DNA of 59,941 nt, the filler included, from Hausera hauseri (Eukaryota), in the NCBI GenBank assembly GCA_046269625.1. It is 10 parts of 10 records of this genome, joined end to end, with 100 filler letters (N's around TTAATTAATTAA, not from the genome) between each part and the next. Parts side by side here need not be neighbours in the genome. Positions count along the whole stretch, not along the records: positions 16,806 to 27,751 come from JBJURY010141093.1; 9 more parts are not named here. The stretch is one strand, 5' to 3'. Below the pieces are notes generated by a model. It was given only the letters and a program-made list of their open reading frames with translations, was not told the DNA's origin and did no database searches. Every line of letters starts with the position of its first letter. Position 1 is the first letter of the stretch. Positions 5,330 to 39,530 of this stretch are shown piece by piece. The position numbers and the translations under genes are program-made.

Positions 5330-6493
5330 GTGGAAATACTGCAACAAACGGGCATCGCCCAAACCAGAAACGAGTTAATCTCATCAAACCAAGGTGTGTC
5401 GAAACTCTCTATATTGTATACGTTTTGCCTGTTTATGAGCTTGTGTTCGACATCTCGTGGAATAGATATTGACTGGGGATGGACTCGTCAGAGAAACGAA
5501 TTACGTTTATATACGTTGGTATCAGATATTCTTAATGACATTAAGGTTGGAGTTTTTATGATACAGGGTCATAGGCAATACCAACGGTTCTACTGTGAGT
5601 TTAAACCACTAGGAGGCCACTGCCACTATAAATATCCGGATGAAGGAACACTACAGCAAGTGATCGAAGAATAGGTTAATGGTACTCAAATCAGAAGATA
5701 GAATTCAGAAATAATAAAGATCACGACGTTTTCGTATCAAAAGGAAATCCCAGTTTATATATATTTGTCTGAGAACCAAAAAGGGGTACAAATGCGAGTT
5801 GTCTCGAGAGGGCAAAAATGCCCACTAATGATTAGGAAACAAGGGGAGAGCTCTAAACGGGTAGTTAGATATCAACGCGATTTTAACTATAGCGAATCAG
5901 CTTGGCTAGAACTCAGTTGTTACACAGGCAATCTGCGCCGGTATATTAATTTCCAATGGATTCAAGCACAAGCTAAGCCGTTAAATCTATCAGGCGAATA
6001 CCTTTAGGAGAGAGTATCGTCAACGAAGGATGATAAATTAAAGGAAACGTATAGAGTTCCGTGGATTTTTATACGGCAAGATATGAATATTGTCACAATC
6101 TTGTTGGGCTCGTATCACAGAGCAATAAAAGTACTGTGTCGTAGTGCTACAGGACATCAGGTAGAGAATGGTGGTTTTAATAAAATTCAGGTCACGAAGA
6201 ATTATAGCCTTGAGATTTCAAGCACTAGCTACGACATTGTCCAATTAACCTTTATTATACATGGCTTAAATAATTTTATGCTACTTAATACCACCTTAAA
6301 ACTCATTGTACCTAAACTATTGTTGGTTTCAAAGACTATAGCAAAAAACGTGTACACCCTACTGTTTCTTCTATGCTGCAATGTCTTATCTCGAATATCA
6401 CTTATATATAAAAAATCAAAGAAAGGGACGCAGGAAGAAGTACCACAGCAGACAACAAGACCCAAGACGGCAAAAACACCATTGCATAATTGA
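5330..6493 (+). pseudogene. Putative type I membrane protein downstream of pol (disrupted)
   Basis: Signal-like SILYTFCLFMSLCSTSRG; Cys-containing ectodomain fragments; hydrophobic YTLLFLLCCNVLSRISLIY followed by basic KKSKK. Confidence 0.55.
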
Positions 6494-7715: not shown

Positions 7716-7868
7716 CCAATTTCGAAGGTTTTCAAATAATGACGGTCATTGGGGTGGAACCTTTGGTTGAGTAAGTGACGCAATTAATTTGTCACCATAA
7801 GGATCTATCCATTCTCGAGTTGGTCTTATTTTAACAGGTTACTATGAATATTCGTCAGAATCCATATC

Positions 7869-8531: not shown

Positions 8532-8548
8532 AGTTTCTTTTGAGACTA

Positions 8549-9300: not shown

Positions 9301-9349
9301 ATTTTTCGTTCAGCTTGATCCAGATACTTTCTGGTTATGAAAGGTTTTT

Positions 9350-11400: not shown

Positions 11401-11676
11401 TTGTCTAGAATTATACAAAAGACGATGTCGAATAAAATTTGACATTGGAAATTTATATGTAAGCTAACAGGATAGCCCAGTAGCTACGTCAATGATATCT
11501 CGACACCCCGCTAAACGTGAGAATATACAACAATACATTAAATACCGAACAGAAACACAGCCAGATTGGTCGCCAAACGGGATAGAATTACTTCAGAATA
11601 AAATTTTGTATCCCCAGAGAAGGAAAAGAAACCTAAACAAAATATCCTCGACAATCTCTATTTATGCGATCTAGAA

Positions 11677-11868
11677 TGCGTGATCTGCTATGTAAACGTA
11701 CCATAAGTTATTCTTCTACCGTGTGGTCATCTAGAAACATGTTAGCTATGTTCCAATAAAACAAAAAATTGCCCAGTTTGTAGAAATCTTACAGAAAGAC
11801 GAGTGACTCATTTCCAATTTTCAGAAAGGAACAGTGAAATAATCTCACCCGAAATGGATATTAACTAA
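11677..11868 (+). pseudogene. IAP/Mdm2-type C3HC4 RING finger with two in-frame stops
   Basis: Manual translation: ECVICYVNVP*VILLPCGHLETC*LCSNKTKNCPVCR. Confidence 0.85.
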
Positions 11869-11877
11869 TAATTAGTA

Positions 11878-12736: not shown

Positions 12737-15700
12737 TTATTTTAGCCGCCAATGTCCATACGCCCAACTCTTATTTCTCCCAACCCACTTTCACTTATCA
12801 TCGTCACATGACAAAGCGACTTTCGCACTAGTTATTGTGTACAGCTGGTGCTGAATTGATTGGATTATAGTTTGAGACACAACAGCCACTGATTGTCCTC
12901 CTTCTCATGCTGTAGCTGCTGCTGCTTCATATATACGGCAATAATCACCGTGGCCAATTTCCGTCTGCTGCAACTGGAATCCTTTTGCTCGAATTTTCGG
13001 TTCACAGTCTGTCAGGAGACTGTAGCACTTTGTGCGTAAAAATATCCATTCCCGATACTGAACCAGACCTTCATTTTCATCCGTGAAGCAGCCGATTTTG
13101 TTGATTATCGCGCTGCTGTATAACGGATGACACGGTTGGTAATTGGACGTGTCCAGTAACCCATCTTACTGTATTTTATGCAGTATCTGTTCGCGATTGA
13201 GTTTTTTAACCGCAGGAAAAAACCGTCTGTGTCACTGGCAATTATACTAATGTCACAGCCGTCAAAAATTTGCCGGTAACGTTCCAAGTTGCGATACTGT
13301 AGCTTATACATGCGCAACTTGCTCATGTCCAATACCATTTGTCCGATGTGACTTGGCCGATCCAGTATGACTTCTCCTCTGTTTAATAGCACCGCAACCA
13401 ATCCATCGTCAATGCTCATTGATTGCCGAAATTGTCTTGCTGGTATACATAATCAGCCGCTTTTCGGTGTTGCATAGGCGTACATTGAGCCGCTTTTTCA
13501 GATTCGCCACTGTTTGTCCGTACAGGGAATTGTTTTCCAGTTTGTAACCGTCATTTTTGTACTTTGAACAAGCTGCGGCTCGTTTCTCCGAATTTCCATC
13601 TATGCACGCCTTGAATATAAGCGCCTAAGCAAATTGGATTGCACGATGCAGCTATGCAACGCGAACACCGAGCTGCATGCAGAACTGTAGCAGATGCCAA
13701 TGGACCACGTAATTCAGCTTCGGTTCATGCGTCATGAGCAGTTTCTTTACTTTTGAGCCTGGTGGACATTAGTTAAATGGTGCAACCGGCAAATCGTCCA
13801 AAACGTCATGCAGCTCATCTGGTATCTTGAGATCGACCGCCATAAGTTGTCCGACTGAGCTTGTCATGTCTGCTCGTGGTAGGTTGACCATTATGTCGTC
13901 CAGATCTTGTCTGTCGACTACCCATTCGAATGAACCGTACGGCGAGGGTTGCGGAAGTGCCCAGCCGTACAAGTTATTAATACCAATATACAGCAGTAAT
14001 GTGGTATCGGTAGCACTGACTGCTGCTTGTTGACAAATGCCATGCCACCTGAAATACCAACATCAAACAGTTGGTACATTTCCGGGTCTTGCAGCAGCTC
14101 AATATCTCGATCCAGTGACATTAGAGCTGACGCCCAACTCTTTCCGAGTATTGAGTAAAAGTTTAGTGGTTTCAGCCTATCTTCAGCCAACGCTTTCGCC
14201 CGAAACGCTTGGAACACATCGGTTAATAAGTACACGTCCAATTACGATACTGAAGCATGTAATCCAACATGTTTCTGTAGCCGAGTTCTGTCCAACACAT
14301 CTGCACTTTCCGGTATTCATCCTCTGCGATACCTGTCCATCGTGGCGGTAATTCCTCTGCTGTTCGGAGTCTCTCATATGATGCTGCAAAGTCATATGGG
14401 AATATGCCTTTGCTACGCGCAATATGTGTGGAAAATTTCGTCAATATTATCGGCACATCCGAGAAGGCATTTACGAGATTTGCTAGAGACTCATTGAGAA
14501 ATTGCAATAAGTCGAGGAAGCGTACTTGGAACCGGTTTATGCGTGCTGACAGGGACAGGTATTTCTCGATTGTTGTTGGGATTACTGACAGTTCCCAGTG
14601 AGCAAACCCATTAATTGTCCATTTCAGTATATGGTGACAGTAATAACCTCAAAAATTATGAAAGATTACCGGCAGGAATGGCCGCACACGCCTTTCCAAA
14701 TTGCACAAATTGCATGCTGATCCCAAATATCGACCGGTGAAATGGTCATGGTCCGGTACAAGCCGTTCGTGTGCATCGAACGGTAATATTTTGTGGCACA
14801 GATAGCATTCATCGGTTGCAGCGAACATCGGCGGTTCATATTCATCTGTCCAAATCAATGGTTTAATGGAATTATTGCGATACCACGGTTCGATTTCCGT
14901 TTCTATTATCGTTTCCAAACGCTGCAAAAAATTACGTACGTAGTTCCAGCCGTGAAAGGCGTAATACTGTGGCTAACAGACTGCTTTTATTGGACAAACA
15001 ACATACCAACGGCGATTAAAACGTGTTTTTGATCCCACATGGTGTGCAGTGGTAGAATTGCCTCAATATCGGCATATACCACATATGCCAGACTGTTCGT
15101 TTTTGACCAGTCACTGAATCGGAGCTCCTTTTTGAGTGGCATAACGTACATGGTTGTTCCAGTTGAATTCTGCTTGCACAGCGTCACATGTTTCGACCAT
15201 TTTGTTTTTGACCTGAATCTATGCAGACATACAGGACATCATTTGCATTGTATTCGCTTTTTGATAAACTGGTCATGCTCCATGTTCAACAGTCTATTTA
15301 GATTTGTCACTGCCACGTAATGAACTTTTTCGGCCTGCTCCAACAGCAACAAATTTACCGAGCGTCAGTTCGGGTTCCGACTGCAATAAATTATGTCCGC
15401 ACCGGGGTTCTTATAAATTTATTCGTTTTCCGGTATTTCAATTATTGTGTTGTACTAGAAAACATTGATTTACAGCACCGGATTATGCCGTTCAAAAGCC
15501 GGAATCATTTTCATCGGCATCCAGAATTCATTAAATTTAAATTCGGAAACGTACTGCCGATACTGATTTGGACGATTTGCATGATATCTGTTCACTTCGC
15601 TGTACTTCAATACAGCCAGAATACTGTACAGAAAACAGTATTCGTCGTCAGTATTTTGTACATTCACTACCGCCAGAGACTGCTTTAGATATGCAGGTAT

Positions 15701-16190
15701 CCTATGAATAACCGTCCAGACAAATATACCACGCCACTCAACTTTGTTATGATAAAGCCGAGTGTGACACTTCGTATAAATTGCCATCCACTATCCTTTT
15801 CGGTATAGTTGGCGATCTTCTCATCCAACTTTTCGCATATATCGGCAATAAAATCTTCCGAATACGGTACGGCTCGATATGACAGGTACCATTGTTTCCT
15901 GTCACCTACAACGTTTTCAAATTATGCAAGTGCATAATATTGCACTTTGCAGTTGTTGCGTTTGAATTTATCCACCTGTAATTCCAACCGGCTACGCACA
16001 CCGGACGGAACATGTCTCAGCTGTACTGTTGTTGTCCTCGAAATGTTTGCTTTCATGTCCACGTACGATTTGATTAGATCGTACTTGACAGTAATGGAAG
16101 GTTCCTGCTGTTGCACCTGCTGCTATTCGGTACTGTTTTGGATGTATTCGTCAAGACGTGTTCAGGCCTGACGTTTCCTGCTTGTTCAGA
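12737..16190 (-). pseudogene. Polinton/adintovirus protein-primed DNA polymerase B (pPolB)
   Basis: VVYADIEA; DHDHFTGRYLGSACNLCN; VIFHN; KGIFPYD; DVYLLTDVF; NNLYGWA; NSLYG; SDTDG; C-terminal DDDK...SWAYGHWRLK* ending at 12737. Confidence 0.95.
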
Positions 16191-16608
16191 GGTTACTGGT
16201 TTTTTTCGTCGACATCACTATTTCCTTTCTGGACCGCTGAAATTGGTTTATGTGGTCCTTGTGCTGGTTATAAAATTGTTCATAGCTGATTTTATCAACT
16301 ATCGAACAACCGGGACAAACGTAGGCCCGTTTACCGTGCACCATTGTGGCGTCATAGTATTGCCCCATTGCACTATGGCAACCATCAACTTCATGTACTC
16401 TACTACTACAATATCGGGGGTATGTGTGGCAATGCACAAGCATCATCTTTTTTGCACGCTTAAACGGCCAAGATGATGCTTGTGCATCGCATAAAAGTTG
16501 GGGTATAAACAAGGGGATGAAATAATAACGCACGTTTGGCCAAATGTGAGTCCGTGCCAACGGTGTAACATTTAGCCATCTGCTGATGGTACTGTTCCTG
16601 CTCCGCAT
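16186..16608 (-). CDS. Cys/His-rich (C2H2-like) region immediately upstream of pPolB
   Basis: YVCPGCSIVDKISYEQFYNQHKDH; homologous to 46839-47462 and 54060-54472. Confidence 0.65.
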   Translation of the reverse strand: MRSRNSTISRWLNVTPLARTHIWPNVRYYFIPLFIPQLLCDAQASSWPFKRAKKMMLVHCHTYPRYCSSRVHEVDGCHSAMGQYYDATMVHGKRAYVCPGCSIVDKISYEQFYNQHKDHINQFQRSRKEIVMSTKKTSNL

Positions 16609-16705
16609 ATATGGGCGAGACGCAATACATGGGATAATTACAAAATAAAATAAATGTTTTATATTAAGTTATAAATACTATAAATTGAGAAGTGACTTAT
16701 AAACA

Positions 16706-16805
16706 NNNNNNNNNNNNNNNNNNNNNNNNNNNNNNNNNNNNNNNNNNNNTTAATTAATTAANNNNNNNNNNNNNNNNNNNNNNNNNNNNNNNNNNNNNNN
16801 NNNNN
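16706..16805. other. Artificial contig linker
   Basis: 44N-TTAATTAATTAA-44N. Confidence 0.99.
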
Positions 16806-17087
16806 TGGGCTGCACACTTGAACTGTTCACCAATCGATGCATCTCGATGTGCTCTATCGAGTAGCACTTTGTCCCTATCGATTTGATTAATGGCGCACTG
16901 TGCAGCGATCGATTTGCCAAATGTGCAAAAGTGCCCTTAGCAACGGTGCCTGGCGCCACCGTTGCCAGGCACTTTTTGTATGGATAGTGCTCCGGGTGCA
17001 CTATCGATTGGCATATGTGCAAAACTGATTTATCGATTACCCCTCCCCCCACCCCGGGTGGGACAGAAAGCACATTTTCACACTACT
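16806..17087. mobile_element. Probable Polinton terminal inverted repeat end
   Basis: GC-richer palindromic block ending CACACTACT; ACTACT at 17082-17087 is the reverse complement of the canonical Polinton 5'-AGTAGT terminus; abrupt switch to A-rich retroelement coding sequence afterwards. Confidence 0.65.
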
Positions 17088-17195
17088 GACGAGAAAATAA
17101 GACAATTGTTGCCACAAATATGACAATTTGAAGAAACTTGCATTAAAACCAAACAGAGAGCGGTAAGATTAGACGAACTAACTAAAGGGCTCAAA

Positions 17196-18167
17196 GTGTA
17201 TAAAAATAACTATGCTCTTACAGAAGCAGAAAAGACTGACAAGTCACAATTTGTTCAAAGATGGCCAAGAGACGTAGCCTCCGAGTTAACCAATTATCAA
17301 GAACCAGGATTTATATCAGGTGAAGAATTGTGTCAGCTGCTAACAGTATTACGCCAAACTTCCGGAAACGGACGTTGTTTCCGAAGCACACAAATGGTTA
17401 TAATGCAACAAAAACTACGGGAACTAAGAGAATCAAATAAGGATGCGAACTTAGTCCGGCCGTTAGAAACTCCGGAGATTGATTTCGGACTACCCGAAAA
17501 CGAAAACGAATGGGACGCGTATCTGAATGCAATAGTTGCCGAAAACCCGAAAACTCCCGTGCACTTGTACGAAACGGAGACATGTCCACCAGATCAGAGA
17601 TTCAATGTGGAGATGCTTCTGGACTCGGCACAAACTGAAAAGGATCTAATAAAGTTAATAAATGTAAACCTTACCGAAAATCAATTAAGACGGTTAGTTC
17701 CCACCCTAACTAAATTATCTAGCGAAGGTACGATTTATCGTGCTGCACAAAAACTTTTAATCAAAGAATATGCTAAAATCTTAAGGACAAGGCCCGAAGA
17801 GACGATTAAAGTAATAATAACGTCTGACTGAATGGACTAGAAGGAGCACGAGTTTACAACACGTTCCCTTGTGAAGGATGTAGCACTGTGGTTAAGGAGT
17901 AATGGTCATAAAAATGAATTGAACTGTAGGCTTCATTTTAGAGGAAGAATATTAGACAAACTGGAACTACTAATAGAAATTGGAATTATTCCAGACGAAG
18001 CAAACCGCATAGCGGTTACCATTCCCACCGACGAAGCAAAAGAAGAGGCCACCAGAAGGGCGAAGACTGAACAGTGGGTAGGACGAATTGTAGGAGTTCG
18101 ACATGCAGCAATGTACTTCAAATACTTGCAAAAGATGAAGACAAGGAACAATATGATAAGAATTTAG
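17196..18167 (+). pseudogene. N-terminal ORF with a ubiquitin-like domain (about 17800-18030)
   Basis: ORFs 17196 and 17871 are in one frame across two stops: TIKVIITSD*MD*KEHEFTTRSLVKDVALWL...CRLHFRGRILDKLELLIEIGI, compared with ubiquitin [21 protein letters not shown]. Confidence 0.55.
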
Positions 18168-20283
18168 TGCCACCCAGTAATATCGCACAGACAGTAACCA
18201 AACAGAAGCCTCCTGTCGGCAGGCCACGGAAGACACGAGAAGAAATCGACTATAACGGAGACATATTCGAATTTAATAAGACCACAAGCTTGGCAAGGAA
18301 GGCTGCCAGGAAACTGCCCCAAGAAGTAAACTGGTCCAAATTATTTGAAAAAGAAGAAGAACGTCAAAATAGACCCTTTCTTGACAATAATAGATTTGTA
18401 GACCTGCTACAAAACGTAACCGGAAATAATAGAGGAAATGGGCCAAACTGGCTAATTAACTTCTTAACCGTGATGATGTTAATAAGACAAATGGGTGCAG
18501 TTACAGTGTACGACTGCGGCAAATATAAACTTGGCCAAAAATACTCATTAATGGACTTAGAAATGTGTGAGGATGCGAGACCACATAAACTAGAAACAAA
18601 AGAGAAAAATTACGTGCTATACCAACAACGCGAACTAGTTACATTAGACGGAATAGAATGTATGTTGCGACGATCCCGTAGTATTTTCCATTGTGGACTA
18701 GTACATGAGCATATATCGATAATCAAGCCAACAACCCCACCAATTCCGATGAACTTAGAACGCCAGCACTGTAAGCAAGCTAGACAGACTGGAAGATTAA
18801 AATGGGATGACATGGAATTGGAAATGCAACAAGGAAAGATAATTAGAGTATATAACCCGGCAGCTGGAAGACTACATATGCATATCGAACATTGTCACGG
18901 TACGGAGTATGATACTGGAAAGGGATTAGAGTCGAATATCGTAGTGGTAGATTTTTACAAAACCGAGATGCGCCTACAAAAGGTAATGTTCCGTAGCGTT
19001 ACTAAACTTTACACGGAAAACCAGAAGTGCCACATTCAGGACGGTACTTGCTCTTTTAGAAGCTCCGTGGTAATTTGGGAACTCCCAGCCAAGGCCGATT
19101 GCAATTTTATCAGAATTAAAGAACTTAAGTTTAATGAGACAACAGGGAAACGATACATACGTAGCACGGAAACTAACTCTAAAACACGAGAAGATGTAGC
19201 CAAACAGTCCACACCTGCTATACTGATTTCTGATATTTATGGATTAAAATTTGTGAAGATGTACTAGAAAGATGCAATGTCATAATGTACGCCACCAATT
19301 ATGAAGAATTCATTGTAGCTGAGACGGAGATAAACGCCAGAACGTTTAAGCTCGAGACTCAAGATATTCGAATTGAGGATTATTTGAAAGAGACGACCAT
19401 TTCTACTATAAAGGACAAGTTGGAATAGCCGAGTTATATAACAAAATGATAACAAATGACTGCAAATTTGACTTGGAAGTTATGAGGACTAAACTGGTTT
19501 TAATATATGATAACCCCGAATTAGCGTCACTAATAATTCCGATGAAAGAAGGCGTTTTCGGTCGGGTAACCGGAGAAGTCCTGCTGACCTATAAATGTGA
19601 AAAAAACGATGAACCTATTAATATGGAAGAGAAGAGGTGTATACAGGAACTTCCAGTAATATACCAAGACGTACAAAGGTTAGTAACACCAATTACTAGA
19701 GTATTGTTGGCAAACTCTACTCAACCGACAATTTTGAGACTGCAAGACCAGCCTAGGCGAATCAATGTTCAGACGTAGCAAAACCTATTGGGTAAGTTTG
19801 CCAAACGGCGGCATAATTACGCTGCAGACCAAGTTAACAGGAACAAACTTAATAATAGGAAAAACCGATGATAAATTTCAAGATACCGCCGCAAAGGGCA
19901 TTTAACGACCAAAAGAGGTAGAGGCGTTCAGACAATTCCTCGCTTTTCCTCGTCAGCGCACACATGAATTAAACAGAACGATGCATACAATACCAGAGGA
20001 CTCGCGTTATCAAGCGAAGTGGAAATCATTGCTTGGTGTCAACTACTACCGAAGAGTAACTACGGAAATATTGTATAAAATTTGGGGAAGATTCCTGATA
20101 TTCGAACAAGCCGCGTCAGGATTCCTAGCAATTTATTTCTTGATTCAACTGATCAAAGCGATAATTCAAGCGATTATAAATGGATACGAGATATTCACTT
20201 TGACAGGATTCTCGTGTAAGATTCTAACAGCTATTATAACACCTCTCGGTAAATTCTTAAAGGCTTATAAAGAGAGTAAATAG
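18074..20283 (+). pseudogene. Chuvirus-like glycoprotein with internal signal peptide and C-terminal membrane region
   Basis: WLINFLTVMMLIRQMGA/VTVYDC...YSLMDLEMC...IECMLRRSRSIFHCGLVHEHISII...CKQARQTG...AG...CHG...GVFGRVTGEVLLTYKC...CIQELPV...IWGRFLIFEQAASGFLAIYFLIQLIKAIIQAIINGY. Confidence 0.85.
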
Positions 20284-20959
20284 AAAGCGGATGTGGAACG
20301 ACATGTTGACTACCATAATCGAAAACGTAAGACATTCGATTACAAGCAAAAATTCATGGATACTAATACACGAAGATATAACTCTGACATGACGAGCCTA
20401 AGGGAGGAGACGTTCTCTCCAAGTCGAACAGGCACAAAAACTACTCTGCTATGAAACTACCATTACCAATACTACCGCCAACGGCACCTATATATGAAGA
20501 CTGTGAGAAACAATCTGAGCTCGTGCCAGACAGGAGTCAATCGGAAGCCGTTTAATCTAGAGGATCCTTACGAAGGAACAAAACACTATGGGATATTGCG
20601 TAAGATCCACGAAACAAAAAGAACGTCTGCCCCACATCGCCGCGCGGCAATCGACGATCACGGTATAATTTATTCACCTAGAATACCTAAATCAAACGAA
20701 AGGCAGTCAACATTTACCGGAAGCCGCGAAACACACCATCTCAGAAACCAAGAGATCCAGCCGCCAGTTAGAAAACAGGAGATAGAAAACGTAAATGGTA
20801 TGAATAACGAACTATACCCAATTGGAGTGTTAAGACAATTAATCGATTGGCCAGTTGAAACCACTGATGTCACCATCAACGGCTATACGTTATCCACAAT
20901 ACGACACCCCCACATAGAACCAAGCTATTACGGTGCCGTAATCGAAGGAAGCCCTTCGC

Positions 20960-23900
20960 AAAAATTCAAATAGAAGATTGGGAAGTTTGCGGACTGATAG
21001 ATACAGGATCCTAAATCTTGCTGATAAAGTATAATTCGATACCACAATTCCTAAGGAAACAATTATATCCATCTCCTACAACAGACCCAGGAAGTGTCGG
21101 AGCCTTCGGCCAATCGTCTAAAAGCAAATTTCGTTGGAAATTGGAAATTCGCATAATGGGACAATCTTTCCATCATGAATTTTCAGTAATGGAACAATTA
21201 ACGGATGATGTAGTATTGGGGTGCGATCTATTGAGGCAACTACCCAACATAGCGATAGATTTCAATGCAGGGAAATTAATAGAACTTGGTCCAATAAAAG
21301 GATTAAAACCACTAAATACAAAAAATTCGGAGAAATGTGGATTCCCGTGGATGAAAACATACCGCCCAGAACCGAATTGCTAATATATGCTCAGATACGT
21401 CATGATGACGATCAGAAAGTATATTTTAAGCCAAAAGAATCGATTAATCCTAACATTGTGCTCAGCAACGTTTTGACAAGAGTATCAACGGGCCGCGTGC
21501 CAATTAGAATAGCAAATAACGCACCGACCCCGATCAAGCTATATGCCAATACCACTTTGGGACACACGTATAGAGTGTCATCAATTACTATCGAAGAGAA
21601 ACCGTATAAAGGCTCCGAATTTCCACCCCACGTTGAGATCAAATTTTCACCGGAGTCATATAGTCGATTTTACGAATTACTTTGTCGATATAGCTCGGTT
21701 ATCGTAAAAGATGAAGAGGATATTGGCCGAGCTAAAGCTTTAAGACTCACGATCCCACTTAAGAAAAAGCCTGGGTCCAACGATAAAATAGATTTAGAGG
21801 ATCAAAAGATGCCGAAATTGTATCCCCTCCACACTCGTTAAGACCGGAGATAACCAAGGAGGTTGAACGGATGTTAAAGGCAGACATAATCAGACCAAGC
21901 TATAGACCTTATTATTCACCTATCCTTATGGTTAAGAAGAAATGTACCACTAAGCACCGATTTTGTATCGATTATCGAGCGTTAAATACGCTCACGATGA
22001 AGGACTCTTTTAAATTACCATCGGTAAAGAAAGCTCTGGATAGGCTTTCTGGAGCTAAATGGTTCACCACACTTGATTTAAAATCCGGATATTGGCAAGT
22101 AGAAATAGAGGAAGAAGACCGTTACAAAACCGCGTTTAAGACACACGACGGTATATACGAATTTAACGTCATGCCATTTGGAATAACTACCGGACCAGCC
22201 ATCTTTACCGGCATGATGAACAAGATGCTGATGGGATTAGAACACGCGTTCGCCTACCTAGATAACGTCATGATTGAGATAAAAACGGAAGAGGATCATT
22301 TAAAGGATATTGAAGGTATGCTCATGAGATTGAAGCAAGCTGGATTGAAACTGATTCCTAAGAAAGGCAAATGGGCTCAAAATGATGTATCTTATCTTGG
22401 ACACAGTCGGGGAAGGAGGATCAAAGCCGGATAGATCATTGCTAAATAAAATATAGGACTGCATGGAACCACAGAATCAAAAGGAACTAAGATACTGGTT
22501 GGGATTATGTCAGTATTATGCTACGTATGTTTCAGATAATTTGGAGATAAACACACCCTTGAATCGCTTGCTTAAAAAAGGGATAAAATGGAAATGGACC
22601 GACGTTGAACAGAAACATTTGATGAAATGACGAAAATTCTAACTAGTGAATCTGTATTAAGATATCCTTACTTCAACCTAACGTTCATAATCAAAACAGA
22701 CGCCAGTAAGGAAGGCATCGAATACGAACTAGCTCAGAAACGAGGAGACGAGGAACTAGAACATCCGATCGCATATGGAGGGGGCTCTCTAAAGAAAGCC
22801 GAGAAAAACTACTCTGTAACGAAGTTGGAAACGCTAGCGGTGAATGAAACACTGAGACATTTTAATGTATACGTCTATGGACAGAAGATTGTAATCGTCC
22901 CTGGTCACAAGGCGGTCACAACCTTGAAAGGTAGAGCAAATAATCCAACCTGTAGACTCAACAGATGGATCTAGGAGATCTCACGTTACAACATTGAATT
23001 CCAATGCAAGCCTGGAAATAAACATGTCGATGCCGATGCATTATCGAGACTTAAAACTAAGACAAGCGCAGTTGCGGTAATGAGGAAAGCCCACCTGAAA
23101 GACTTAGTAGAAAGACAACGGACTCTCACACTGGATAAGGCATTGACGATTTCTATCGAACAGAGAAACGACAAAGTTATACAACAAATTATCGAGTTTG
23201 TTGACACCAACAAACCACCAAATGGTCATAAGTTACGGAAACACCTACGACGACATGGTCACAAATACTGCATCGTAAGAAATTTGAACCACGGAAATGT
23301 TTTGTACCACAGACGAAAGGGACGAAAACTAGTCGTCATATTAAAGGGACTACGTGCGGAAGTACTAATGGCTGAACACGACTCATACCTAGCCGGACAA
23401 ATGTCGTGGAAGAAAACATTGGAAAAAATATTAAATAAATATTACTGGCCGAGCATTTACATTGACGAGATAAATTGGGTGAATGCTTGTGAAGTATACG
23501 CAATCAAACAGAGAAAAGTGAAAAACTACATCACGGAACTTAAACCTATCAATGTGCCAGATAGACTAATGCAGGCAATGTCCATGGATATTGTAGGACC
23601 ATTGCCTACAACTCACAAAAACAATAAATACATTTTGACCTGTGTAGACCGATTGACTCATTTCGTCGAGCTTATAGCGTTAATAGACCAAAAGGCCGAG
23701 ACTTTGGCAGAAGTAGTAGTCTGGAAGATTATTTGCAGATACGGACCACCTGAACAAATTTTGACAGACCAAGGAAGAAACTTTACAAGCAAATTGTTCG
23801 AAAAAATTAACAAAATTTTTGAAATTGGACGATTAACTACCACAGCTTATCATCCCCAGTGTAATGGAATGGTTGAACAGATGAACGCGACAGTTACATG

Positions 23901-24420
23901 AATCTTATCAACAGTAGTCGCAAAAGACCAGAACGATTGGGACGAGTTTTGAGAAGACACAGTTTGCCATTAATACTACACCACATCCTGCGACGGGATT
24001 CACTCCATTTTTCATGATGTACGGTAGAGAAGCTGTATTGCCCACAGATTTAGGACTGATCCCATACATAACAAGAACGGAAGATTTAGAGCAAAATTTT
24101 GTCGAGATTACACAAGTGCTGGGAAATAGCCAAAGAATTATCTAGAGAATACCAGGAACAATTCAAGAAGCAATACGACAAGAAGGCGAAACGACACAAC
24201 CTAGAACCAGGAAACTGGGTTTACGTACACTATCCAGTGGCAAAGAAAGGCACGTTTGTTAAACTTACCAGGACAGGCAAAGGACCTTATGAAGTTATCA
24301 AAACTACATCAACCACAGTTTATATAAACAAAAACGGCAAGGAGGAGGTCATATCAATTCAAAGACTAGTCAAAACGGAAATAAGACCAAACAAGCGCTA
24401 TAGTTTGCGTTCGAGCAAAG
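20960..24420 (+). pseudogene. pol: Gypsy pol: protease, RT, RNase H, integrase with GPY/F
   Basis: GLIDTGS (DTG 21000-21008); RFCIDYRALN; LDLKSGYWQV; YLDN (mutated YxDD); KTDASKEG; MDIVGP, LTDQGRNF, NGMVEQ (DDE); GKGPYEV. Confidence 0.97.
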
Positions 24421-24469
24421 CAAAATTGGACTATACAAACAAAGAAAAGAAAACGTTGTCGATAGTGAC

Positions 24470-25798
24470 TAGACCAATATCGTATGTACAAGTAGTCATC
24501 GCCTTATCGTTAATCGCTTCGTATATACCAAAGACAAGGTCGATAACCCGAACCGAAAACTACAGTATGCGGCAAGACGAAGAGATATCCAAAACTTACA
24601 GTCACTTAGAGTATATGATATGGATTGGAGCAAACCATGTGCATGGTTCGAAGCAAGTGAACCTATTCTGGGCCATGTAAAATTTCAAATAATCTTTGTA
24701 ACTAGATACACATGTAAAACATGCGATTTTCCATACGGAGCTCATAGACAATGTTGTAATTTAGATTTCAGACAAACCTACCGATACAGATTTCAAATGT
24801 TCTATTATAATCAGCCCAGAGCCCAAGCATATATAATTACTGAACTTTTAATAAGGATGCCTCAACGAAATGACACGAACCAAGCCAAGGCGGATGAGAT
24901 AATCCAAAGTACTGATGTATTTAAAAGGCTCTTAGATTATAACATTGTTGGGATTTCCAATGACCTAAAGAACCAATGTATCCGAATCAAAACCAAAATA
25001 GAACTGCAAGGAGACAGATACATTTCTGCCCGATTTATACAACTGAATGCCTCGACTCCTATTCCGGAGTATTGTTATCTCGCACGACGACGGCCTACGG
25101 TATGTTGTAAATTGCAGCTAGGACACAACTACCAGTTACAGTTTGATCTGTACAACACTTACCCTAAAAAACCGAGTACTTACTTACGAGGATACCGTCC
25201 AAAAACCGGAATATAGAAACTTCCGTTTTTAACCACTACAAGGAAACCGTCCACTATTCCAAGTACAATTCGCACTACTGCAATCGTCACTTCGGAGGAA
25301 ATGCCAGAAAAAGAACTAGGGAGCATACCGGTTAAGATTTTGGCAAAAAGTGATAAAATTCTATTTTATGCTGACGAAACGTTAAATCAAGACGTCAAAA
25401 TTGAATGTCGCATCCTGCACATTAACCAAATCATAATCCTAAGAAAGAATAGTCAGGAAACTGAATGCAGTTCATTGCGACCGCAGCATAACTATATAAT
25501 CCGAATCACCTGGAAGAGTAAAAACCCTAAAACTTTTACAGTCCGAACTCTTGACAACAAAATTGATGTAATGCAGTATAAAGATCTTAGTACTCAGAAT
25601 GTGTCTACCACAAAAGATTCTATTGAGCCAGACAATTTACCGATGATAGCTATATTAAGTTTGTCAATTTTCGTTCTTGTCGCATTAACAGCGATGATTT
25701 TTCTAGTTTCCAAAAATTGTAATAAAAACAGTAAAAATCAAAAGGGAGATAAACGGGTAAAAGGATGCCAAGACGAACTTTATGATAGCATAACTTAA
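24470..25798 (+). pseudogene. Second type I membrane protein with three Cys-containing FN3-like repeats
   Basis: Signal-like YVQVVIALSLIASYIP in frame with the IN tail; repeats CCNLDFRQTYRYRFQM, CCKLQLGHNYQLQFDL, ECSSLRPQHNYIIRITW; TM MIAILSLSIFVLVALTAMIFLV then basic tail. Confidence 0.65.
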
Positions 25799-25903
25799 CA
25801 ATTACACATCAGGTTATCCTATCATCAGACAGCGAAAATGTTTTGTTTCAAAACGATGATCTGTCTTAGGATTGACCTTTATTTTTATTTTAGCAGAGTA
25901 AGT

Positions 25904-27150
25904 ATGGCCGAAAAAGCGAAGAATCCAGCCACCAGCTCCGGATATGACATCGAAAACGTCATGCAGCAACATGTAACAGTCCTCAAACCATTATCTAAAA
26001 ACGTATATCGTCAAATTGAAGAAAATCTGAAAAACAACACTTACGTCGAAATCGATCAGGAAAATAAAATACCAAATGGGTTAAAATGGGGTTTAGAGGA
26101 AAATCGACTGATTCGGCTATACGAAATGCGAAGCCCCAGAGACGCACGAGCATACCTGTTGAGAGATATGATTCCATATGAACCGACGCATCAGCAATTG
26201 TACGTACATATCGCTAACGGAGAAATTCAATACAGGATCGTAAGTCAATCCTGGAGCGCACAAAAGGGGCAACAATGGAAATTTAGCACTTATGAGTTAT
26301 GTTGCTATAGTCTCATGAACTATGCTATGGAATTTAGAATCGCAGAAATTCCAACCAAACTCATGTTCGAAATGATCTGGCGGACAGAAGTAATGAAACC
26401 GCTACCACCATTAATGTGCATACAAAAGCCTTCAGAAGATGAGATAAAAAAGAATGTAGAATCTTATAGATTAGTTCAGACGGCCATAATACTCGAATTT
26501 TAGTTGTGAACTATGGAGAAAAGGATGGTGGATGGTATACGCCGATTGAAGTCGCGATTCGAAGTACAAACTGGGAAGAACTTATAAACAAAATAATTGC
26601 ACCCAGAACTAGGGTGAAGGACACCTTTCCCGATGTTACCGGAATTACGAAAGTACTACTCGAAATATGAAAATATTTCTTAGAAATCCAGGAAGATATA
26701 AACCATTGCTTATATGGATGTATTGCAACCGGATTTCGAGTGCACGAAATGTTGGAACGACTGAGAATTAGACAAGAGTATATATCCGGAATTCGCGAAC
26801 TAAGTCGGAATCCAACGGTTGTAAGACGAGTAGAAACCGTTTTAGTGAGAAAAAGAGGGTGTCTACTTCCGTCAGCATCACGTAAATCACAATTCAAAAT
26901 GATGTTATAAGCCATGAATGGCGAACGATTTAAATTTCCTAAACTAATGTCAGCGAGTCAGCGTACGAAGCTTTAAAGGTCATTTACGCCTCTCTGACAT
27001 GGGAACATGAGTGGAAACCTATGAACCCCATACAGAATGTGATGTCCGACAACAATCCAAAAATCTTGATACAAAAATTTCTAAAAGGGTTTAGCGAATA
27101 CTCAACTCATACAAGTTCAGCCGCAAGGACACAATCGATTTTGAGTAACG
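25904..27150 (+). pseudogene. Accessory ORF of unknown function
   Basis: ORF to 26503 from ATG 25904, with coding-like continuation in another frame; same strand and composition as the element. Confidence 0.45.
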
Positions 27151-27494
27151 GTTCATAATAATTCAACGGAAACGCCCAACCGTCGACCAGCCGAGCCCGA
27201 GAAAAAATTGAAAAAAATTCAAGTAACCCCGAAACTTTGAGAGAACAAAAACTAAAACTCCCTTCTTAGAGTATATTATCAAGAAAAGAAGGAAAACTAG
27301 TAAAAACCCAGTAAAAGAAAACAAGTCACCTGAGCATACAGAAAAACCCACAAGACGAGAAGCCGATAATTCTGACGAGATCAAGATGAGAACTGCCGAT
27401 ACAAAACTCCGTAAGATGGAAGTGTGAGGAGGAATTTAAACGGATATTAAGGTTTAAATTCAATTCAAAGTTAGTTCAAATTTAAGCCAATAAA

Positions 27495-27751
27495 ATGTCA
27501 GGAAATTCAGGAAAGGAGGAAAATAAGACTCATTTAATGAGTGAAGAAGACAATTTTTATACAAACTTTTATAATAAATTTCTAACGCATAATTCGGTCT
27601 TAGAACCATTGAGTGACGCTGATGTCGGTTTGATAGAAACGCAATCTACTAAAATGGCGAACCACGCTTCAAGGGACTTCTTCGAAAAGAAATTGATGCC
27701 AAAAGAATTCCAGAAAGGTGACAACGTGGAAACCTTTATTGGAAAATGCGA
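27495..27751 (+). CDS. Start of a Gag-like ORF, cut by contig end
   Basis: LMPKEFQKGDNVETFIGKC resembles the P..F..G.....F...F start of retrotransposon capsid domains. Confidence 0.5.
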
Positions 27752-27851
27752 NNNNNNNNNNNNNNNNNNNNNNNNNNNNNNNNNNNNNNNNNNNNTTAAT
27801 TAATTAANNNNNNNNNNNNNNNNNNNNNNNNNNNNNNNNNNNNNNNNNNNN
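27752..27851. other. Artificial contig linker
   Basis: 44N-TTAATTAATTAA-44N. Confidence 0.99.
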
Positions 27852-27863
27852 AAAGAATAAACT

Positions 27864-28880
27864 TCAATCAATTATATCTTTCGATTTGTTCAATAACTTT
27901 TTGCCATCTTCCTGGCAACTTTCGCGTTCATAAAACTTCTGATCCTTATCAGCAAAAAATTGAACCAAATGCGATTTTAGATCATCATCATTAGTGTAAG
28001 TTTTACAATTCCAAACGTTTTGCAAACTTCGAAATAAATGATAATCAGATGATGCTAGATCAGGACTGTATGGAGGATGTAACATCGTTTCCCAACCCAG
28101 CTCCAATAATTTTACACGAGTTGCTAAAGATGTATGAGGCCTCGCATTGTCTTGGTGGATCATGATTCCTTTGTGATTTGCCAAGTTTGGGCTTTTTTCT
28201 TTGATTGGTTGCTCTAATTCTATTGATTATTGACAATAAACATCCGAGTCTAACGTCTTGTTATTTGGAAGCAGCTCAAGATACGCAATACCTTTGTAAT
28301 CCCATTAAACTGACAGAGTGGTCTTTTTTGATACAATTCAACTTTCGGTGTGGTTTGTGCTGGCTCATCACGCCTAGACCATGATCTTTTCGATTGATAT
28401 TACTGTATGTGGTCCACTTTTCATCGCCAGTGATGATTCGTTTCAAAAAAGGATTGAGTTTATTTCGCTTTAGGTGAATATCGCAAATGTTGATTTGCTG
28501 CGTCAAATGGATCTCTTTCAAATTATGTGGAATCAAAATATCGGCCTTCTTAATAAATCTAAGATATTTTAAATGATTTTCAATTGTTGTATGTGACAGA
28601 TGTAACTTCTACGCAATCTCTCGAACAGTTATTTGACGATCTCCTTTAATTATGGCTCTGATATGATGATCATTAACTTCAGTAGGTCTACCAGAAGGTT
28701 GAACACATTTGAGTGAAAAATCTCCTAAACGAAATATTTTATACCAGTTTTGACATGTGCGTTTTATTACACAATCAACACCATGAATTTCACATAGTTC
28801 TTTATATGCCTCAGAAGCTTTCTTGCCTTTACAAAGATAAAATGTAAAGTATGTCGACAATGTTCCTTATTGCACTCCAT
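27864..28880 (-). pseudogene. Mariner (D,D34D) transposase, near full length, frameshifted
   Basis: RTCQNWY..FR.GDFSL...SGRP; IPHNL; IITGDEKW; HQDNARPHT; HPPYSPDLASSDYHLF. Confidence 0.95.
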
Positions 28881-28999
28881 GTTTAAGTTGACCCTAAACT
28901 TAGAAATATTAAAACAAAATTATACACAATTTGCTTCTAACGTAGCCTGAATGTGACTGATACTAACTGTTAAAATGAAAGTATAATAATATTAAGAGA

Positions 29000-31900
29000 T
29001 GTCATTGTCAGTTCATTTGCAACATAAGCCCAGAAGTCACCCAGATTCTTTTCCTTAAATGCAATTTGAAGTCCTCCATTAGTAATTACGTGGTGCGTTA
29101 GGTAAGTCCCTGGACTCGACAAGAAAAAAGAGACCAAACCTGTTCAAATTTTAATGACATTTACATAACCCAACATACACTCATTTCTCAATTTATGAAC
29201 CATTTTCCTCCACAAATTCATTTTCGAAGAAATTTGGAGCTAATTTTGTCAGGATTTGCTCCTCTTCCTCCTTCGGTTCTTCTGCGGATTGAAAATGGTG
29301 ACCTTTCAGATGTTGTTTGAGGTTGCAGAATAGCACAAAATCACTGGTTACCAGGTCCGGGATGTATGGAGGGTGCACCTCAAGCTGGAAGCCACACTCT
29401 TCTGTTGTGGCCGAGGAGATGTGTGACGTGTGAATTGGAGCGTTGTCATGTAACAGTCAGAGAGGGACGCCTAGAGACTTTCGCCGACGTTTTCGCACAT
29501 CACGCATAAGCTCACTGCAGTACTGTGAGTTCATCGTGGCTTCTCGGTCCAGGAAATCGATTTTAATAATGCCGCGAATATCCCAGAACACAGTAAGCAT
29601 GGCAACCGGTTCGTCAGATGTCCCACTGCGAAGCTTGCGTGGAGCTGATTCTGATGACATTCGCCATTCAGCAGGGTCCCTCTTTTTCTGACCCTCAGTT
29701 TTCTGATGCCAAAATCCTTCAGGATTGCATGAGTAGTGAACGTACTGACGTGGAGACGTTGCATCAGTTCACGAATGCTGATTCTGCGTTTAGAGAGGAC
29801 AATTTTCTGGCACAGTTCTCGTTTTTCATCGGAAATTTCAGGCGATCTTCCCTTTCTTTCCTCGTCGAAAACTGACTGTCGACAACGTTTAAACTTCCCA
29901 ATCCAGTTGTAAATCGTTGAACGTGATATGCACTGGTTCCGGTAGACCTCCTGTAGCTGTTGGATGATTTCTTTATTCTCAGTGCCTTTCAGCACAAGGA
30001 ATTCGATGACGCTGCGATATTCAATGTTTGACGACATCGCTTGCACGAAAATCACAAAACTGCCCTGCTCTGTCACCTAAGCAGCAGCACAAACACGACA
30101 GTGCTAAATTTGTAGCCACTAAAGTGACCGTTATTTATAGTAACAACGTCATTATTACCATCATTCTATTTATACACGAGTCCATGGAATTATCTAATGG
30201 AACACGTAAGTCTTCCTTGCCTTTAAAGGGCATGCCTTCTTTTACTCTGAACAGATCCCGAATCCATGATTTAGTTTTATCAAGGAAAGGAAAATATTCT
30301 CTTTCTTAGACTTTGCAAATGAAGCACTGTTGACAGGTTTAGGAATGATTCCAAATTTCCACTTGTGAGTTTTTTCTCCTACAACTCCAATTTTAGAATG
30401 GTTGATTCAATTTTGTCCTCAACATGGAAACAATTTATGTTAGCTCCTTGAAGTTTAGTATTTAATTCATTAAGATAGTTGAAGATATCGGTTTCTTAAG
30501 CTAATTTTGTAAGAAACCCTAAATTATTCAAATTTTATGGAGCAAATTTTTCGGAGTAGTACGTTTCAGTGTGCTCTTCCATTAAGACTAACCTCACTTC
30601 ATTGCGTAGCTGCTAAAATCGAGTCAGTGTTTTTCCTTTGGATAGCCACCTTATTTCAGTATGCATTAGAAGTATGTAGTGCTCATTTTCCATTTCTTTA
30701 CATAATTCTGATAATAGTCGCGAATTCAGCGCCCTACATTTTGTAAAATTTACCATTTTGACACATTCGTGTAATGTTTGTTTCAGTTCAACTGGAATTT
30801 TTTGTCACCAAAGCTCCCAGATGGATATCACAGCAATAACAGTCACCACTTGGCAGATGGTGTTATTTCCTAGATTCTTCACCTTAGACCTGTTATCCGT
30901 TCGGACATGGCTTTGGCTCCGTCAGTGCTAACTCCTACATATTTCGTTCAGTCAATCTTGTTTTATCGAAAAATGCATTTAATTTTTCAAAAGTTTCTTC
31001 GGCAGTATTATCAATTAAGAAAACCGACAAAAAACAAATCCTCTTGAATAGTGTTTTCGTGCTTATACGTCACGCAATACAATAAAACTGCCTGATTAAT
31101 AACATCTGTAGTTTCATTAAACTGTATGGCAAACCAAGATGTACGAACTCTTTCTATTAATTGTTCTTTAATGCCATCTACCATGCATTCAATTATCCTT
31201 TCTACCATGTTGTTAGTGGAATTTGTGAAATTTCTTTGAGAGCCTTACCACCAATCATTGATGACACCATAGTTTTTGCTGCTGGTAGAATGAGTTCTTC
31301 GACAGTGGTATGAGGTTTGCTTTTTTGAGCTATGAGTTGAGTCACCTTAAAGCAGGCAATTGCGGCTAATTTGTTTGATCCTGGTACAATAATGTTAGAC
31401 ATAATTTTTGGAGACTCTTTTAACTGGTGTTGTTTCTTTTTAACGAAATCAACATTCCTATGCTGAAACTCTGAGTGCTTTGTTTCAAAGTGTTTCTTTA
31501 ACTTCGCTGGTTTCATGGAATCATTTGTTAAGATTTGACCATAAATGTGATGCATTGTGGTTATGTTTCGGCACTATGCGATGATGATCAATACTCTGTA
31601 AAACTTAGAGTCAAATACCCTATATTATATCGACGGACTTTCTTGTCATAATACTTAATAATCTTGTTTACGAGAAAAACTATTGCCCTTGCTGCTAGTA
31701 CCGACTGACATTGAATGTATCACAATATTTTCAACAGTGTCATCATTTTCATTACTTCTGTCTCGCCGCTTTGGCTTTGATTCCCAGTTTTTTGTAATTT
31801 TGTAAACAACCAACGCTTTATAGTTCTTTAAAGACAAAAAATTGTAAAAATGTTTTGTAAAAAAAATTGTACTTACCACATATTGTCTTAATTTTCTTCT

Positions 31901-32529
31901 TCAATTTACTTAATTATAAAAAGCACCGTCAAAATGTTGCAAAATTATTATATTCAAAGTTCTACAATAATTTTGCAAACGTTCACAAAAGTACAAACAC
32001 TAACGTTTATACAAAAAGCAGTACTAAAATTTTTAAACTAAGAATAACGAATTCAAAACTCTGGAACATCACGCTTCCAGTCTTTTCATAGGAGCACAAA
32101 TTACAGCCATCTATCAGAATATTTTCGGGCAAAGAACAACATTCTAGTGCTAGTTCTACACGTAATTCTGTTTTTACACGATATGTACGTTCCTGAAAAA
32201 TTCCCATAAAAGATGTTGTATTTTCATACAAAATTTACTAAAAATTCTTTCACTTTGAACGCATGTGTGCGATTTGTTGTGCGCGCGTGAATCGCTTCGT
32301 TGACTATGCACGTAAATAGAAAAAATCATGTTAAATCAAAACGAGTCGCATAAAATGAAATTTAAATATTTATAATCAATTCGTATATAATGGTTCGTGC
32401 AAAAACAGATTTAGGTGTATTTATTGCATTATTTGGTTACTTTTTATGATTTCAAAATCAGACCTTGGGCCCCTCGAAACATGGCCGTGGACCCCTGGGG
32501 GTCCAGGCACCTCCATTTTGGGAACGCTG
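29000..32529 (-). mobile_element. Decayed hAT (Buster/Charlie-like) transposon interrupted by a mariner
   Basis: NDSMKPAKLKKHFETKH; LIAQKSKPHTTVEELILPAA; FAIQFNETTDV; C-terminal AFKEKNLGDFWAYVANE at about 29010-29085; terminus CAGCGTTCCCAAA on the minus strand at 32529. Confidence 0.8.
29089..30206 (-). mobile_element. Mariner element with both TIRs and TA target duplication, internally deleted transposase (29193-30037)
   Basis: Left TA|CGTGGTGCGTTAGGTAAGTCCCTGGACTCG; right (reverse complement) TA|CGTGTTCCATTAGATAATTCCATGGACTCG; EYRSVIEFL, MLTVFWDIRGII, HPPYIPDLVTSDF. Confidence 0.92.
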
Positions 32530-35713: not shown

Positions 35714-36420
35714 CTAGTGATCATAGGCTAAAGAAGTATTACGACTCGTACAATGTCGTTTATTTTTAAATATAGATAGTGCACGTTTCATATGTTTAAC
35801 TGTTTGTGTCTGGAAGTTAAAAGACTGAAACCTTGTTTGATCAACATTAAACACCGGACCATCATTATGAACTTTAAGGCAATCATTATGATTTAACATT
35901 GCCTGTTCGACGATGACACCCTTTGCACCGGATCCAGATCGGTGTAAACTGTATCATTTGGTATTCACGAACACAGTTTTATCGAACTCATCACCATGTC
36001 CTTCATCTTTACATAAGCCTATTTAATTGGCACACGTATTGGAACAAAAAGCATGATCAGATGGATAACTGCTTGTGTCCAGTAGTTTATCTCGTTGTAT
36101 CTTTTGAAGTTTAATTTATTGACGTTACGGCAGCAGAAGGAAAAAACTATTAGTATCATCGGCAATAATATCTATATCACAGTTGAAATGACGTCGTATG
36201 ATTCTAATTCCTTGTACTGTAGCTCATACATGCGGAATTTACACCAATCCAATACCGTTTCACCAATGTAAATAGGAAGGTTCAAACATACTGAATTACG
36301 GTAAAGTAAAATAGCTACGATATTTTCTTCTATGTGAGAAGGTAGAAGTGAGCTCTCCACCTTACTTCTCTGATTGGTCCGCCGACCAGTTTTCCACACT
36401 TGATTAGTTATTTTGAACAT
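35714..36420 (-). pseudogene. pPolB C-terminal remnant
   Basis: LNLPIYIGETVLDWCKFRMYELQY; KRALSIFKNKR...SLAYDH. Confidence 0.8.
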
Positions 36421-38699: not shown

Positions 38700-39530
38700 T
38701 GCTTGTTGTGGATACTTATTGCGATTTCAAATACATACCGGCAGTGAGGGCAATCAAGAGAAAGACCTGACACATCCTGTAGTGACCTGATTGAGGAATT
38801 GGCATCACATGACATTTCTGTTTGTGGTACATATCGAACCAATCGCACTGGATTCCTCAAAGAGCTTGTTAATAAAACAAATTTGAAGAAACTGAAACGA
38901 GGCGAATGCATCTTTCAGCATAAATATGAAATAATTTGTGTTGCATGGATGGACAGAAAACCAGTACATGTAGTTTCCAATGCTTTCATTCCAGAAATGG
39001 AAAATGTCAACAGGAAGAATGTAGATGGATCTTCAGCACTAGTACCATGTCCAATTATCATAGCCAACTACAATCGTTTTATGGGCGGCGTTGACCAGAC
39101 AGACAGGTGAAAGGCAGTTATGGTTGCAATTGCAAGTCCAAGAGTTAGTGGTTACGGTTGTTTTTCCACATGTTTAACCTGGCAATGACAAATTCATTCA
39201 TACTATAAGTACACTGCTACACACTGAACTGGCATTCACCACTGTAGTTCAAACCGATGAAACAATTAGAGTTTCGATGCAAGATAGCTGATTACTTAGT
39301 TGATCATTTCTCTTCCAGAAAACAGACTGGAAGACGAGTGCTGACGCCATTTGCGTCACCCACTCCTTCAGGCCACAAAATTGAAGATATGCGTCAGCTT
39401 GGACTTGCCATAGGCAGGTGTCAGTACTGTTCAGTTAGTCAGAACAAGAAACGAAAACGAAACAAAAGTTTTCGGATGTCCAATGTGTGAAAAAACGGCT
39501 TTGTCCAGTGAAACATTGTACAGAATTTCA
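38700..39530 (+). pseudogene. piggyBac transposase C-terminal half
   Basis: CGTYRTNR; VAWMDRKPVHVVS; CPIIIANYNRFMGGVDQTD; WLRLFFHM; C-terminal GRCQYC. Confidence 0.92.

Follow-up and report, generated by a model that had tools for sequence, protein, structure and literature searches.

Directly behind the integrase of a decayed Ty3/gypsy retroelement of Hausera hauseri lies a gene, here called ORF4, whose product is predicted to span the membrane in type I topology and to bear three FN3-fold domains. An errantivirus-like element with its envelope gene (env) before pol is a known arrangement; the second, receptor-like surface protein appears to be new. By the window we mean the whole stretch of DNA that was analysed, 59,941 nucleotides long, which consists of ten pieces joined by N-run spacers; the element concerned, element B, lies in the piece at 16806-27751 (Table 1). 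As an earlier note on this DNA had proposed, the gene content of B includes, next to a class III-type fusogen (a PF24664 env), a gene for a second predicted surface protein, ORF4; the two-component envelope for which the note also argued is a hypothesis, the co-occurrence of these two genes being what the sequence shows.

Table 1. Features of elements B and A, with positions counted along the window
Feature	Position	Strand	Evidence or remark
Element B, unassigned ORF ahead of env, interrupted by two in-frame stops near 17830	17124..18167	+	not recognised as gag
Element B env, Monjiviricetes-type fusion glycoprotein, over three frames	18071..20380 (end approximate)	+	PF24664
Element B pol, decayed: protease, RT, RNase H, integrase with C-terminal domain	20990..24460	+	Pfam
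ORF4, decayed gene, predicted type I membrane protein with three FN3-fold domains	24462..25798	+	tblastn and phmmer against P0002
ORF4, signal-peptide-like hydrophobic stretch	24462..24542	+	hydropathy, P0002 match
ORF4, frame break between signal stretch and ectodomain, approximate site	24540..24580	+	frame change between two P0002 HSPs
ORF4, predicted FN3-fold domain 1, four Cys shared with P0002	24590..24868	+	7 strands in P0002 model
ORF4, predicted FN3-fold domain 2, internal duplicate of domain 1	24911..25213	+	6 strands assigned
ORF4, in-frame stop codon	25214..25216	+	
ORF4, Ser/Thr-rich linker, predicted disordered	25217..25312	+	P0002 model and composition
ORF4, predicted FN3-fold domain 3, L-x-P-x-x-x-Y in all three proteins	25304..25558	+	structure alignment
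ORF4, transmembrane helix	25652..25708	+	KD 2.84; P0002 model helix 429-465
ORF4, basic cytoplasmic tail ending Y-x-x-I-T	25709..25798	+	kept in all three proteins
ORF5, open frame directly 3' of ORF4	25799..26503	+	element-like codon usage
Element A, ORF behind pol with a signal-like stretch, a basic tail and three stops in frame	5330..6493	+	positional counterpart only

ORF4 and its predicted FN3 domains

ORF4 is a real gene that carries two lesions, one frame break and one in-frame stop. The earlier note had taken 24470-25798 as a single ORF, which is contradicted by the stop and by the change of frame; its signal-like segment is indeed present, but in a frame other than that of the repeats, namely the frame of the integrase C-terminus (open from 24090 to 24680), in which there is no ATG ahead of the stretch from 24090 on. 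The signal and transmembrane (TM) calls rest on hydropathy (KD), which for the signal-like stretch is 1.73 over 19 residues and 2.59 over 11; the single strong TM helix and the basic tail bear out what had been claimed of the C-terminal end. With P0002, an uninterrupted relative, as the query, tblastn aligns 24465-24542 at 65% identity and 24542-25795 at 33%, in two frames, the signal-like stretch pairing with residues 10-35 of P0002, and since both parts are covered by this one open protein, the signal-like stretch and the second-frame ectodomain form one gene. Its layout runs from the signal through a helix, two adjoining FN3 domains, a Ser/Thr-rich linker (11 of 31 residues are Ser or Thr, and 14 of 39 in P0002) and a third FN3 domain to the TM helix and a tail ending in YxxI, which we take to be a YxxPhi-like motif.

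An exhaustive phmmer search over 1.84 billion representatives returned exactly two relatives of ORF4, namely P0002 (479 residues, uninterrupted, 35% identity, E 1.1e-70) and P0003 (189 residues, partial, 46% identity), both singletons without a name, on contigs of 4,939 and 16,242 bases. A word-seeded homologue search found nothing for the ORF4 of element B and only P0002 for the three-sequence profile, Pfam and NCBIfam gave no significant match for ORF4, a PDB sequence search with the same profile gave none up to E 10, and neither the 120 Pol hits nor the window, searched as 683 six-frame pieces, contained a second FN3 copy. Conserved in P0002 at 35% identity are 10 Cys of the ectodomain, all three repeats and the motif of the tail, and the preservation of these features in a frame open over 479 residues would speak for past selection on the family.

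The repeats follow the pattern C-[CS]-x-L-x5-Y-x3-[FI] and occur at 24752, 25103 and 25466, with spacings of 117 and 121 codons, so that the regular spacing reported before stands, while the x4 spacer then given has no match and is corrected to x5. They are the only matches of the pattern across six frames of the whole window, and among 200,000 shuffles at least two matches were seen in none and one match in 180, counts that refer to a pattern picked post hoc. Independent support comes from P0002, where the relaxed pattern has three matches, from the partial P0003, where it has one, and from the mutual profile match of repeats 1 and 2, with a single-comparison E of about 1e-9 in P0002. L-x5-Y is present in all seven domains of ORF4, P0002 and P0003; the Pro of L-x-P-x-x-x-Y, which had been cited as the FN3 signature of the repeats, occurs in repeat 3 only, there in all three proteins, and is missing from repeats 1 and 2, which have L-x5-Y without it. 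The N-glycosylation sequons that had also been pointed out do exist, three of them in the ectodomain, but they are no more than chance would give (2.5 expected, P=0.49), and their enrichment was rejected.

FN3 domains are beta-sandwiches of seven strands and some 90 residues, with a tyrosine corner of the consensus L-x-P-x-T-x-Y before strand F and a conserved Trp in strand B. In the alignment, this Trp is present in domain 1 of both ORF4 and P0002 and absent from domains 2 and 3. The model of P0002, built from a three-sequence alignment, has a mean pLDDT of 48.9, a moderate confidence; domains 1 and 2 lie at about 55-75 and domain 3 at about 45-63. In it a signal helix and a long charged helix precede three beta-domains with 7, 6 and 7 core strands; a disordered Ser/Thr linker separates domain 2 from domain 3, and the model also has a TM helix. 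Foldseek with this model gave 194 PDB matches at E<=0.001, the best being three-FN3 fragments of gp130 and fibronectin (E 2.5e-8), and the model of the natural homologue thus yields three beta-sandwiches that match FN3 arrays, in agreement with the FN3 fold and type I membrane topology that had been proposed. By VIA-align each P0002 domain pairs with FN3 structures at Z 5.9-7.3 and rmsd 2.5-3.4 A: domain 1 with an FN3 monobody at Z 7.3 and 2.8 A over 83 residues, domain 2 at Z 5.9-6.4 and about 3 A over about 80 residues, and domain 3 at Z 6.7 and 2.5 A over 63 residues. The best Z is 7.3 and none reaches 8, a range that the tool terms a common arrangement, and some non-FN3 Ig-like sandwiches tie with the FN3 matches. 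ORF4 itself, folded from its single sequence, gave an uninformative model (pLDDT 40, no Foldseek match at E<=0.001). Domains 1 and 2 cross-match by profile and are internal duplicates, domain 3 being more distant; in the Atlas search the best three clusters for domain 3 were unnamed (0.87-0.89) and FN3 clusters followed at 0.81 as sub-threshold leads, while domains 1 and 2 met clusters without a name, up to 0.84. Pfam PF00041 (fn3) stays under its gathering score of 25 bits: its highest score is the 13 bits of P0003 (E 0.12), and it gave nothing for ORF4 or P0002. On the P0002 model matches, the sub-threshold leads from Atlas and Pfam and the tyrosine-corner pattern together, the FN3 fold predicted for the ORF4 protein is well supported.

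In its tandem FN3 domains, type I topology and tyrosine corner the protein is like gp130, fibronectin, Tie2, contactins, receptor phosphatases, and tissue factor or the class II cytokine receptors. Unlike these animal receptors, it has a short tail without a catalytic domain, and it shares only 2-17% identity with its FN3 structural matches, with no match at the sequence level. WSxWS, the motif in the membrane-proximal FN3 domain by which class I cytokine receptors are recognised, has no match in any of the three proteins. Class II cytokine receptors and tissue factor are marked by the geometry and Cys pattern of a tandem FN3 pair, and the alignments of domains 1-2 to them (Z 6.2-6.8, rmsd 11-13 A) are tied with those to unrelated FN3 proteins. 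The low identity, the absence of WSxWS and the blank PDB sequence search point to no particular donor family. That the module was taken from a host receptor, as the earlier note had considered, is plausible from the fold, but a donor was found neither among the phmmer hits, which comprise the two relatives only, nor in the PDB by sequence. A search of BFVD met mostly phage FN3/Ig proteins; membrane proteins from herpesviruses of fish and turtles also matched, with E values of about 1e-4. A viral donor is not proposed, the similarity being at the level of the fold only.

Element B and the slot behind its integrase

The pol of element B has the Ty3/gypsy order PR-RT-RH-IN, with the Pfam domains RVP (weak), RVT_1, RT_RNaseH, Integrase_H2C2 and rve. 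Upstream of it the three env pieces match PF24664 at E 5.7e-16, 2.9e-13 and 2.3e-17, and this glycoprotein before pol, the mark of gB-type errantiviruses, is above the PF24664 cut-off in three pieces of B and in two of a second element, A; the fusogen class is gB-type in Chary and Hayashi's terms (PMC13524379). Named RT matches include a transposon 297-related Pol and an erranti-like replicase, and there is no BEL/Pao (Anakin-type) label among the named of the best 120 RT matches and no BEL/Pao-specific Pfam domain.

No significant gag match was obtained in B or A by Pfam or with 16 N-terminal Pol/Gag queries, and the ORF upstream of env, where gag would be expected, has no Pfam match below E 0.1 and no gag similarity. 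An ORF of about 170 codons separates env from protease in each of the two elements (2353-2877 in A and 20455-20973 in B, both on the + strand), that of A with weak matches (E 0.13-0.3) to N-terminal parts of gag-pol proteins; by analogy with the ENV-GAG-POL elements of mites, it could be a short gag. ORF5 is followed by a further ORF at 26470-26910 (+), and neither of the two has a significant Pfam, NCBIfam or PDB match. At 27486-27751 (+) an ORF is cut by the contig end, and its last 25 residues resemble a gypsy gag start by eye, a likeness unsupported by any search made. The borders of the element are not set because no LTR, in the form of a long direct repeat, was found in 14000-32000, and the contig may end inside element B; a tRNA gene search found none.

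ORF4 is probably part of element B because it lies directly 3' of the integrase on the same strand, without a gap and without needing an intron, because the A-rich composition is uniform across the contig, because its codon usage correlates at r 0.50-0.57 with that of pol, env and further ORFs of B, against -0.03 to 0.10 for Maverick or mariner ORFs, and because it is decayed like pol, with two lesions in 1.3 kb as compared with 7 stops in 714 columns of the main pol alignment. The best codon-usage correlation of ORF4 is with an ORF set on another contig (r 0.70), and this usage may reflect an A-rich retroelement or host bias and not element B. The slot in question is the one in which other errantiviruses carry env, as the earlier note had it, but env is already present in this element, upstream of pol.

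Element A occupies a separate piece (1-7243) and likewise has a PF24664 fusogen upstream of pol, in decayed form. That A and B are copies of one element was rejected: there is no blastn match between them, and the tblastx identity of 30-47% in env and pol marks them as different families. The check that the earlier note had set for its proposal, presence in other copies, comes out divided: A has a membrane-protein-like ORF in the same position, in which there are five sequons and a TM-like stretch that is weak (KD 1.92), but no homology is detectable, as the ORF4 repeats are absent from it, hhalign gives a probability of 0.1% and profile scores fall under those of shuffled controls. A homologous segment near 6080-6230, suspected by eye, was likewise unsupported by profile comparison. 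About 5165-5210 (+) the integrase core of A seems to be missing, the connection region passing straight into the C-terminal motif of the integrase.

Among the 120 best Pol hits, P0007 is the one nearest to B in its RT (56%). It is an open Pol of 1,349 residues that goes on in frame beyond the integrase, where residues about 990-1349 hold a signal-like stretch, an ectodomain that is small and rich in Cys, a TM helix and a tail rich in Tyr. This extension has no Pfam match and no detectable homology to ORF4, and P0007 is the only one of the 120 hits with a TM segment. In an RT tree (a single build, with long-branch joins flagged) that contained A and B along with the 40 hits that scored best among the 120, A, B and P0007 split from the other 39 RTs with support 96/91. 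The presence of unrelated predicted membrane proteins behind the integrase in B, A and P0007 suggests a variable slot, and a lineage that may append varying type I membrane proteins there. Expression of ORF4 as a C-terminal extension of Pol would fit both B and P0007; as P0002 is called as a stand-alone ORF, the extension and the stand-alone route are both possible.

The window also holds other mobile-element remains, among them Maverick-type polB and integrase and Tc1/mariner and piggyBac-like fragments, a content that most likely marks it as animal DNA rich in repeats. Related Maverick/Polinton-like fragments with a protein-primed polB lie at 13091-16636 and 43928-47519 (a pair 77% identical), the former with an Endonuclease VII-like match at 14649-14972, and further such fragments lie at about 36200-36400 and 56300-57650. 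A TBP-like Pfam match (E 2.7e-6) at 50094-50819 (-), near an integrase/chromodomain ORF at 52053-53177, is possibly Maverick cargo, and Tc1/mariner fragments, a piggyBac-like DDE fragment and a leucine-rich-repeat ORF were noted at 27864-30076 (-), 38748-39110 (+) and 59247-59675 (-). An A-rich, decayed long coding region at 7344-11877 (-), with a gag-like stretch near 10900-10400 (weak, E 0.05-0.2) and then Arg/Ser/Asp-rich repeats, is possibly the front part of another large gypsy element; it has no tblastx similarity to A or B.

Comparison with known retroelements

Like the gB-type errantiviruses described by Chary and Hayashi (PMC13524379), which have the order GAG-ENV-POL in Nematoda, Bryozoa and Platyhelminthes and ENV-GAG-POL in two mites, element B combines a Ty3/gypsy pol with a chuvirus-like, gB-type glycoprotein upstream; unlike them, as annotated with three ORFs, it has an FN3 membrane protein and more post-pol ORFs. 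Neither 'fibronectin' nor 'FN3' occurs in the main text and supplementary file 1 of that paper (PMC13524379), and some of its elements could carry an ORF4-like ORF that is unannotated. The giant Burro/GYPSM1 gypsy elements of planarians (PMC6431247) share with B an env before pol, accessory ORFs and captured host-like domains, the Burro env lying between gag and pol and having mononegavirus glycoprotein matches. Their accessory domains are, unlike ORF4, intracellular (BIR, BCL2-like, MATH, ankyrin, SUMO-like), and the word 'fibronectin' does not occur in that paper (PMC6431247). The gene order of B is compatible with the single giant gag-env-pol ORF of the Burro type, its frames being heavily decayed, and no BIR, BCL2, MATH or ankyrin match was found in it by Pfam.

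The LTR retrotransposons of bdelloid rotifers (PMC5408684) are similar in having an exchangeable post-pol ORF3, which includes small TM proteins with Cys and is a precedent for a variable slot; they differ in that ORF3, as characterised there, is the sole extra gene (F-type env, TM, GDSL or DEDDy), with no mention of FN3 and no separate fusogen described beside it. Anakin elements share with B the captured chuvirus glycoprotein class (PMC7642597, PMC10084718) but have a BEL/Pao backbone, and no second surface protein is mentioned in their description (PMC10084718). In searches of the open literature we found no description of an FN3 membrane protein in an LTR retrotransposon.

Possible roles of the ORF4 protein and their significance

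The most likely reading, which we hold tentatively, is that ORF4 encodes an optional adhesion or attachment factor, with a host-modulating decoy as its main rival. ORF4 would then be an accessory gene of an env-before-pol Ty3/gypsy retroelement, its FN3 module having been captured long ago from a cellular receptor or adhesion gene and domains 1 and 2 duplicated. The protein would enter the ER by its signal stretch, either cut from the end of Pol by signal peptidase or made from a start of its own, and as a type I glycoprotein it would hold its tandem FN3 head off the membrane through the Ser/Thr-rich linker and the third FN3 domain, an architecture that, we infer, suits binding at a distance. 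The terminal YxxI could sort it between surface and endosomes, and the distal FN3 pair would bind a ligand; on the particle or the producer cell, ORF4 would bind a host surface molecule and bring the fusogen to the target cell, fusion itself being performed by the upstream glycoprotein. Several points count against attachment. Most class III fusogens bind receptors themselves; the A ORF and the P0007 tail are not detectably homologous to ORF4; and the structural evidence is a model with a mean pLDDT below 50, a best Z below 8 and no match from ORF4's own fold. Furthermore, no ORFs beyond gag, env and pol are annotated in the published gB-type elements (PMC13524379), and the accessory domains of Burro point to host modulation (PMC6431247).

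Host modulation, in which ORF4 would act at the host cell surface and outside the entry machinery, its disulfide-rich FN3 pair serving as a trap resembling a cytokine or growth-factor receptor, or as an inhibitory or down-regulating receptor acting through YxxI, is possible, though we consider it unlikely. Poxviruses have FN3-type interferon decoys, structure alignment matches domains 1 and 2 as a pair with IL-9R, IL-20R2, IL-6R and tissue factor at Z 6.2-7.1, and the tail motif is kept in all three proteins, but the paired matches have an rmsd of 10-13 A, single FN3 domains of unrelated proteins score equally, and neither WSxWS nor a donor was found. The BIR, BCL2-like and MATH accessory domains of Burro elements are a precedent in its favour (PMC6431247).

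It is improbable that ORF4 is a neighbouring host gene, or that it stems from a host cDNA transduced recently and rides along without serving the element. P0002 and P0003 could be host transcripts, no LTR bounds element B in 14000-32000, and element A has no ORF4 homologue; yet ORF4 abuts the integrase end, is in frame with it and intronless, has decayed like pol, and is element-like in composition, and a conserved receptor family would probably have more than two matches in 1.84 billion, although a lineage-restricted one could escape. Slightly less probable still is an obligate second envelope subunit, a receptor-binding trigger that the fusogen would need as herpesvirus gB needs gD and gH/gL: a type I membrane protein does occupy the slot in B, A and P0007, and the signal-like stretches of both B env and ORF4 lie inside longer frames, compatible with co-production in a polyprotein as in Burro (PMC6431247), but the occupants are unrelated in sequence, which is hard to square with a fixed partner interface.

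To return to attachment, its more general form, in which two proteins would share the work of entry, a class III-type fusogen that is conserved and encoded ahead of pol and a receptor-binding membrane protein that is exchangeable and added after the integrase (three FN3 domains in B, unrelated ectodomains in A and P0007), is in our view doubtful. If it were true, the cells reached by the element would change with a swap of the post-integrase cassette, and retroelements would have their own version of the divided attachment and fusion machines known from herpesviruses and paramyxoviruses; if ORF4 is a passenger or a host neighbour, it is only an orphan FN3 family. Cargo that lies beyond pol in env-before-pol elements can escape surveys in which only gag, env and pol are annotated. 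Enveloped invertebrate retrotransposons have been described with a single envelope protein, and a second, receptor-like surface protein is a concrete candidate for cell targeting or host manipulation, the role of which is made testable by the uninterrupted natural homologue P0002.
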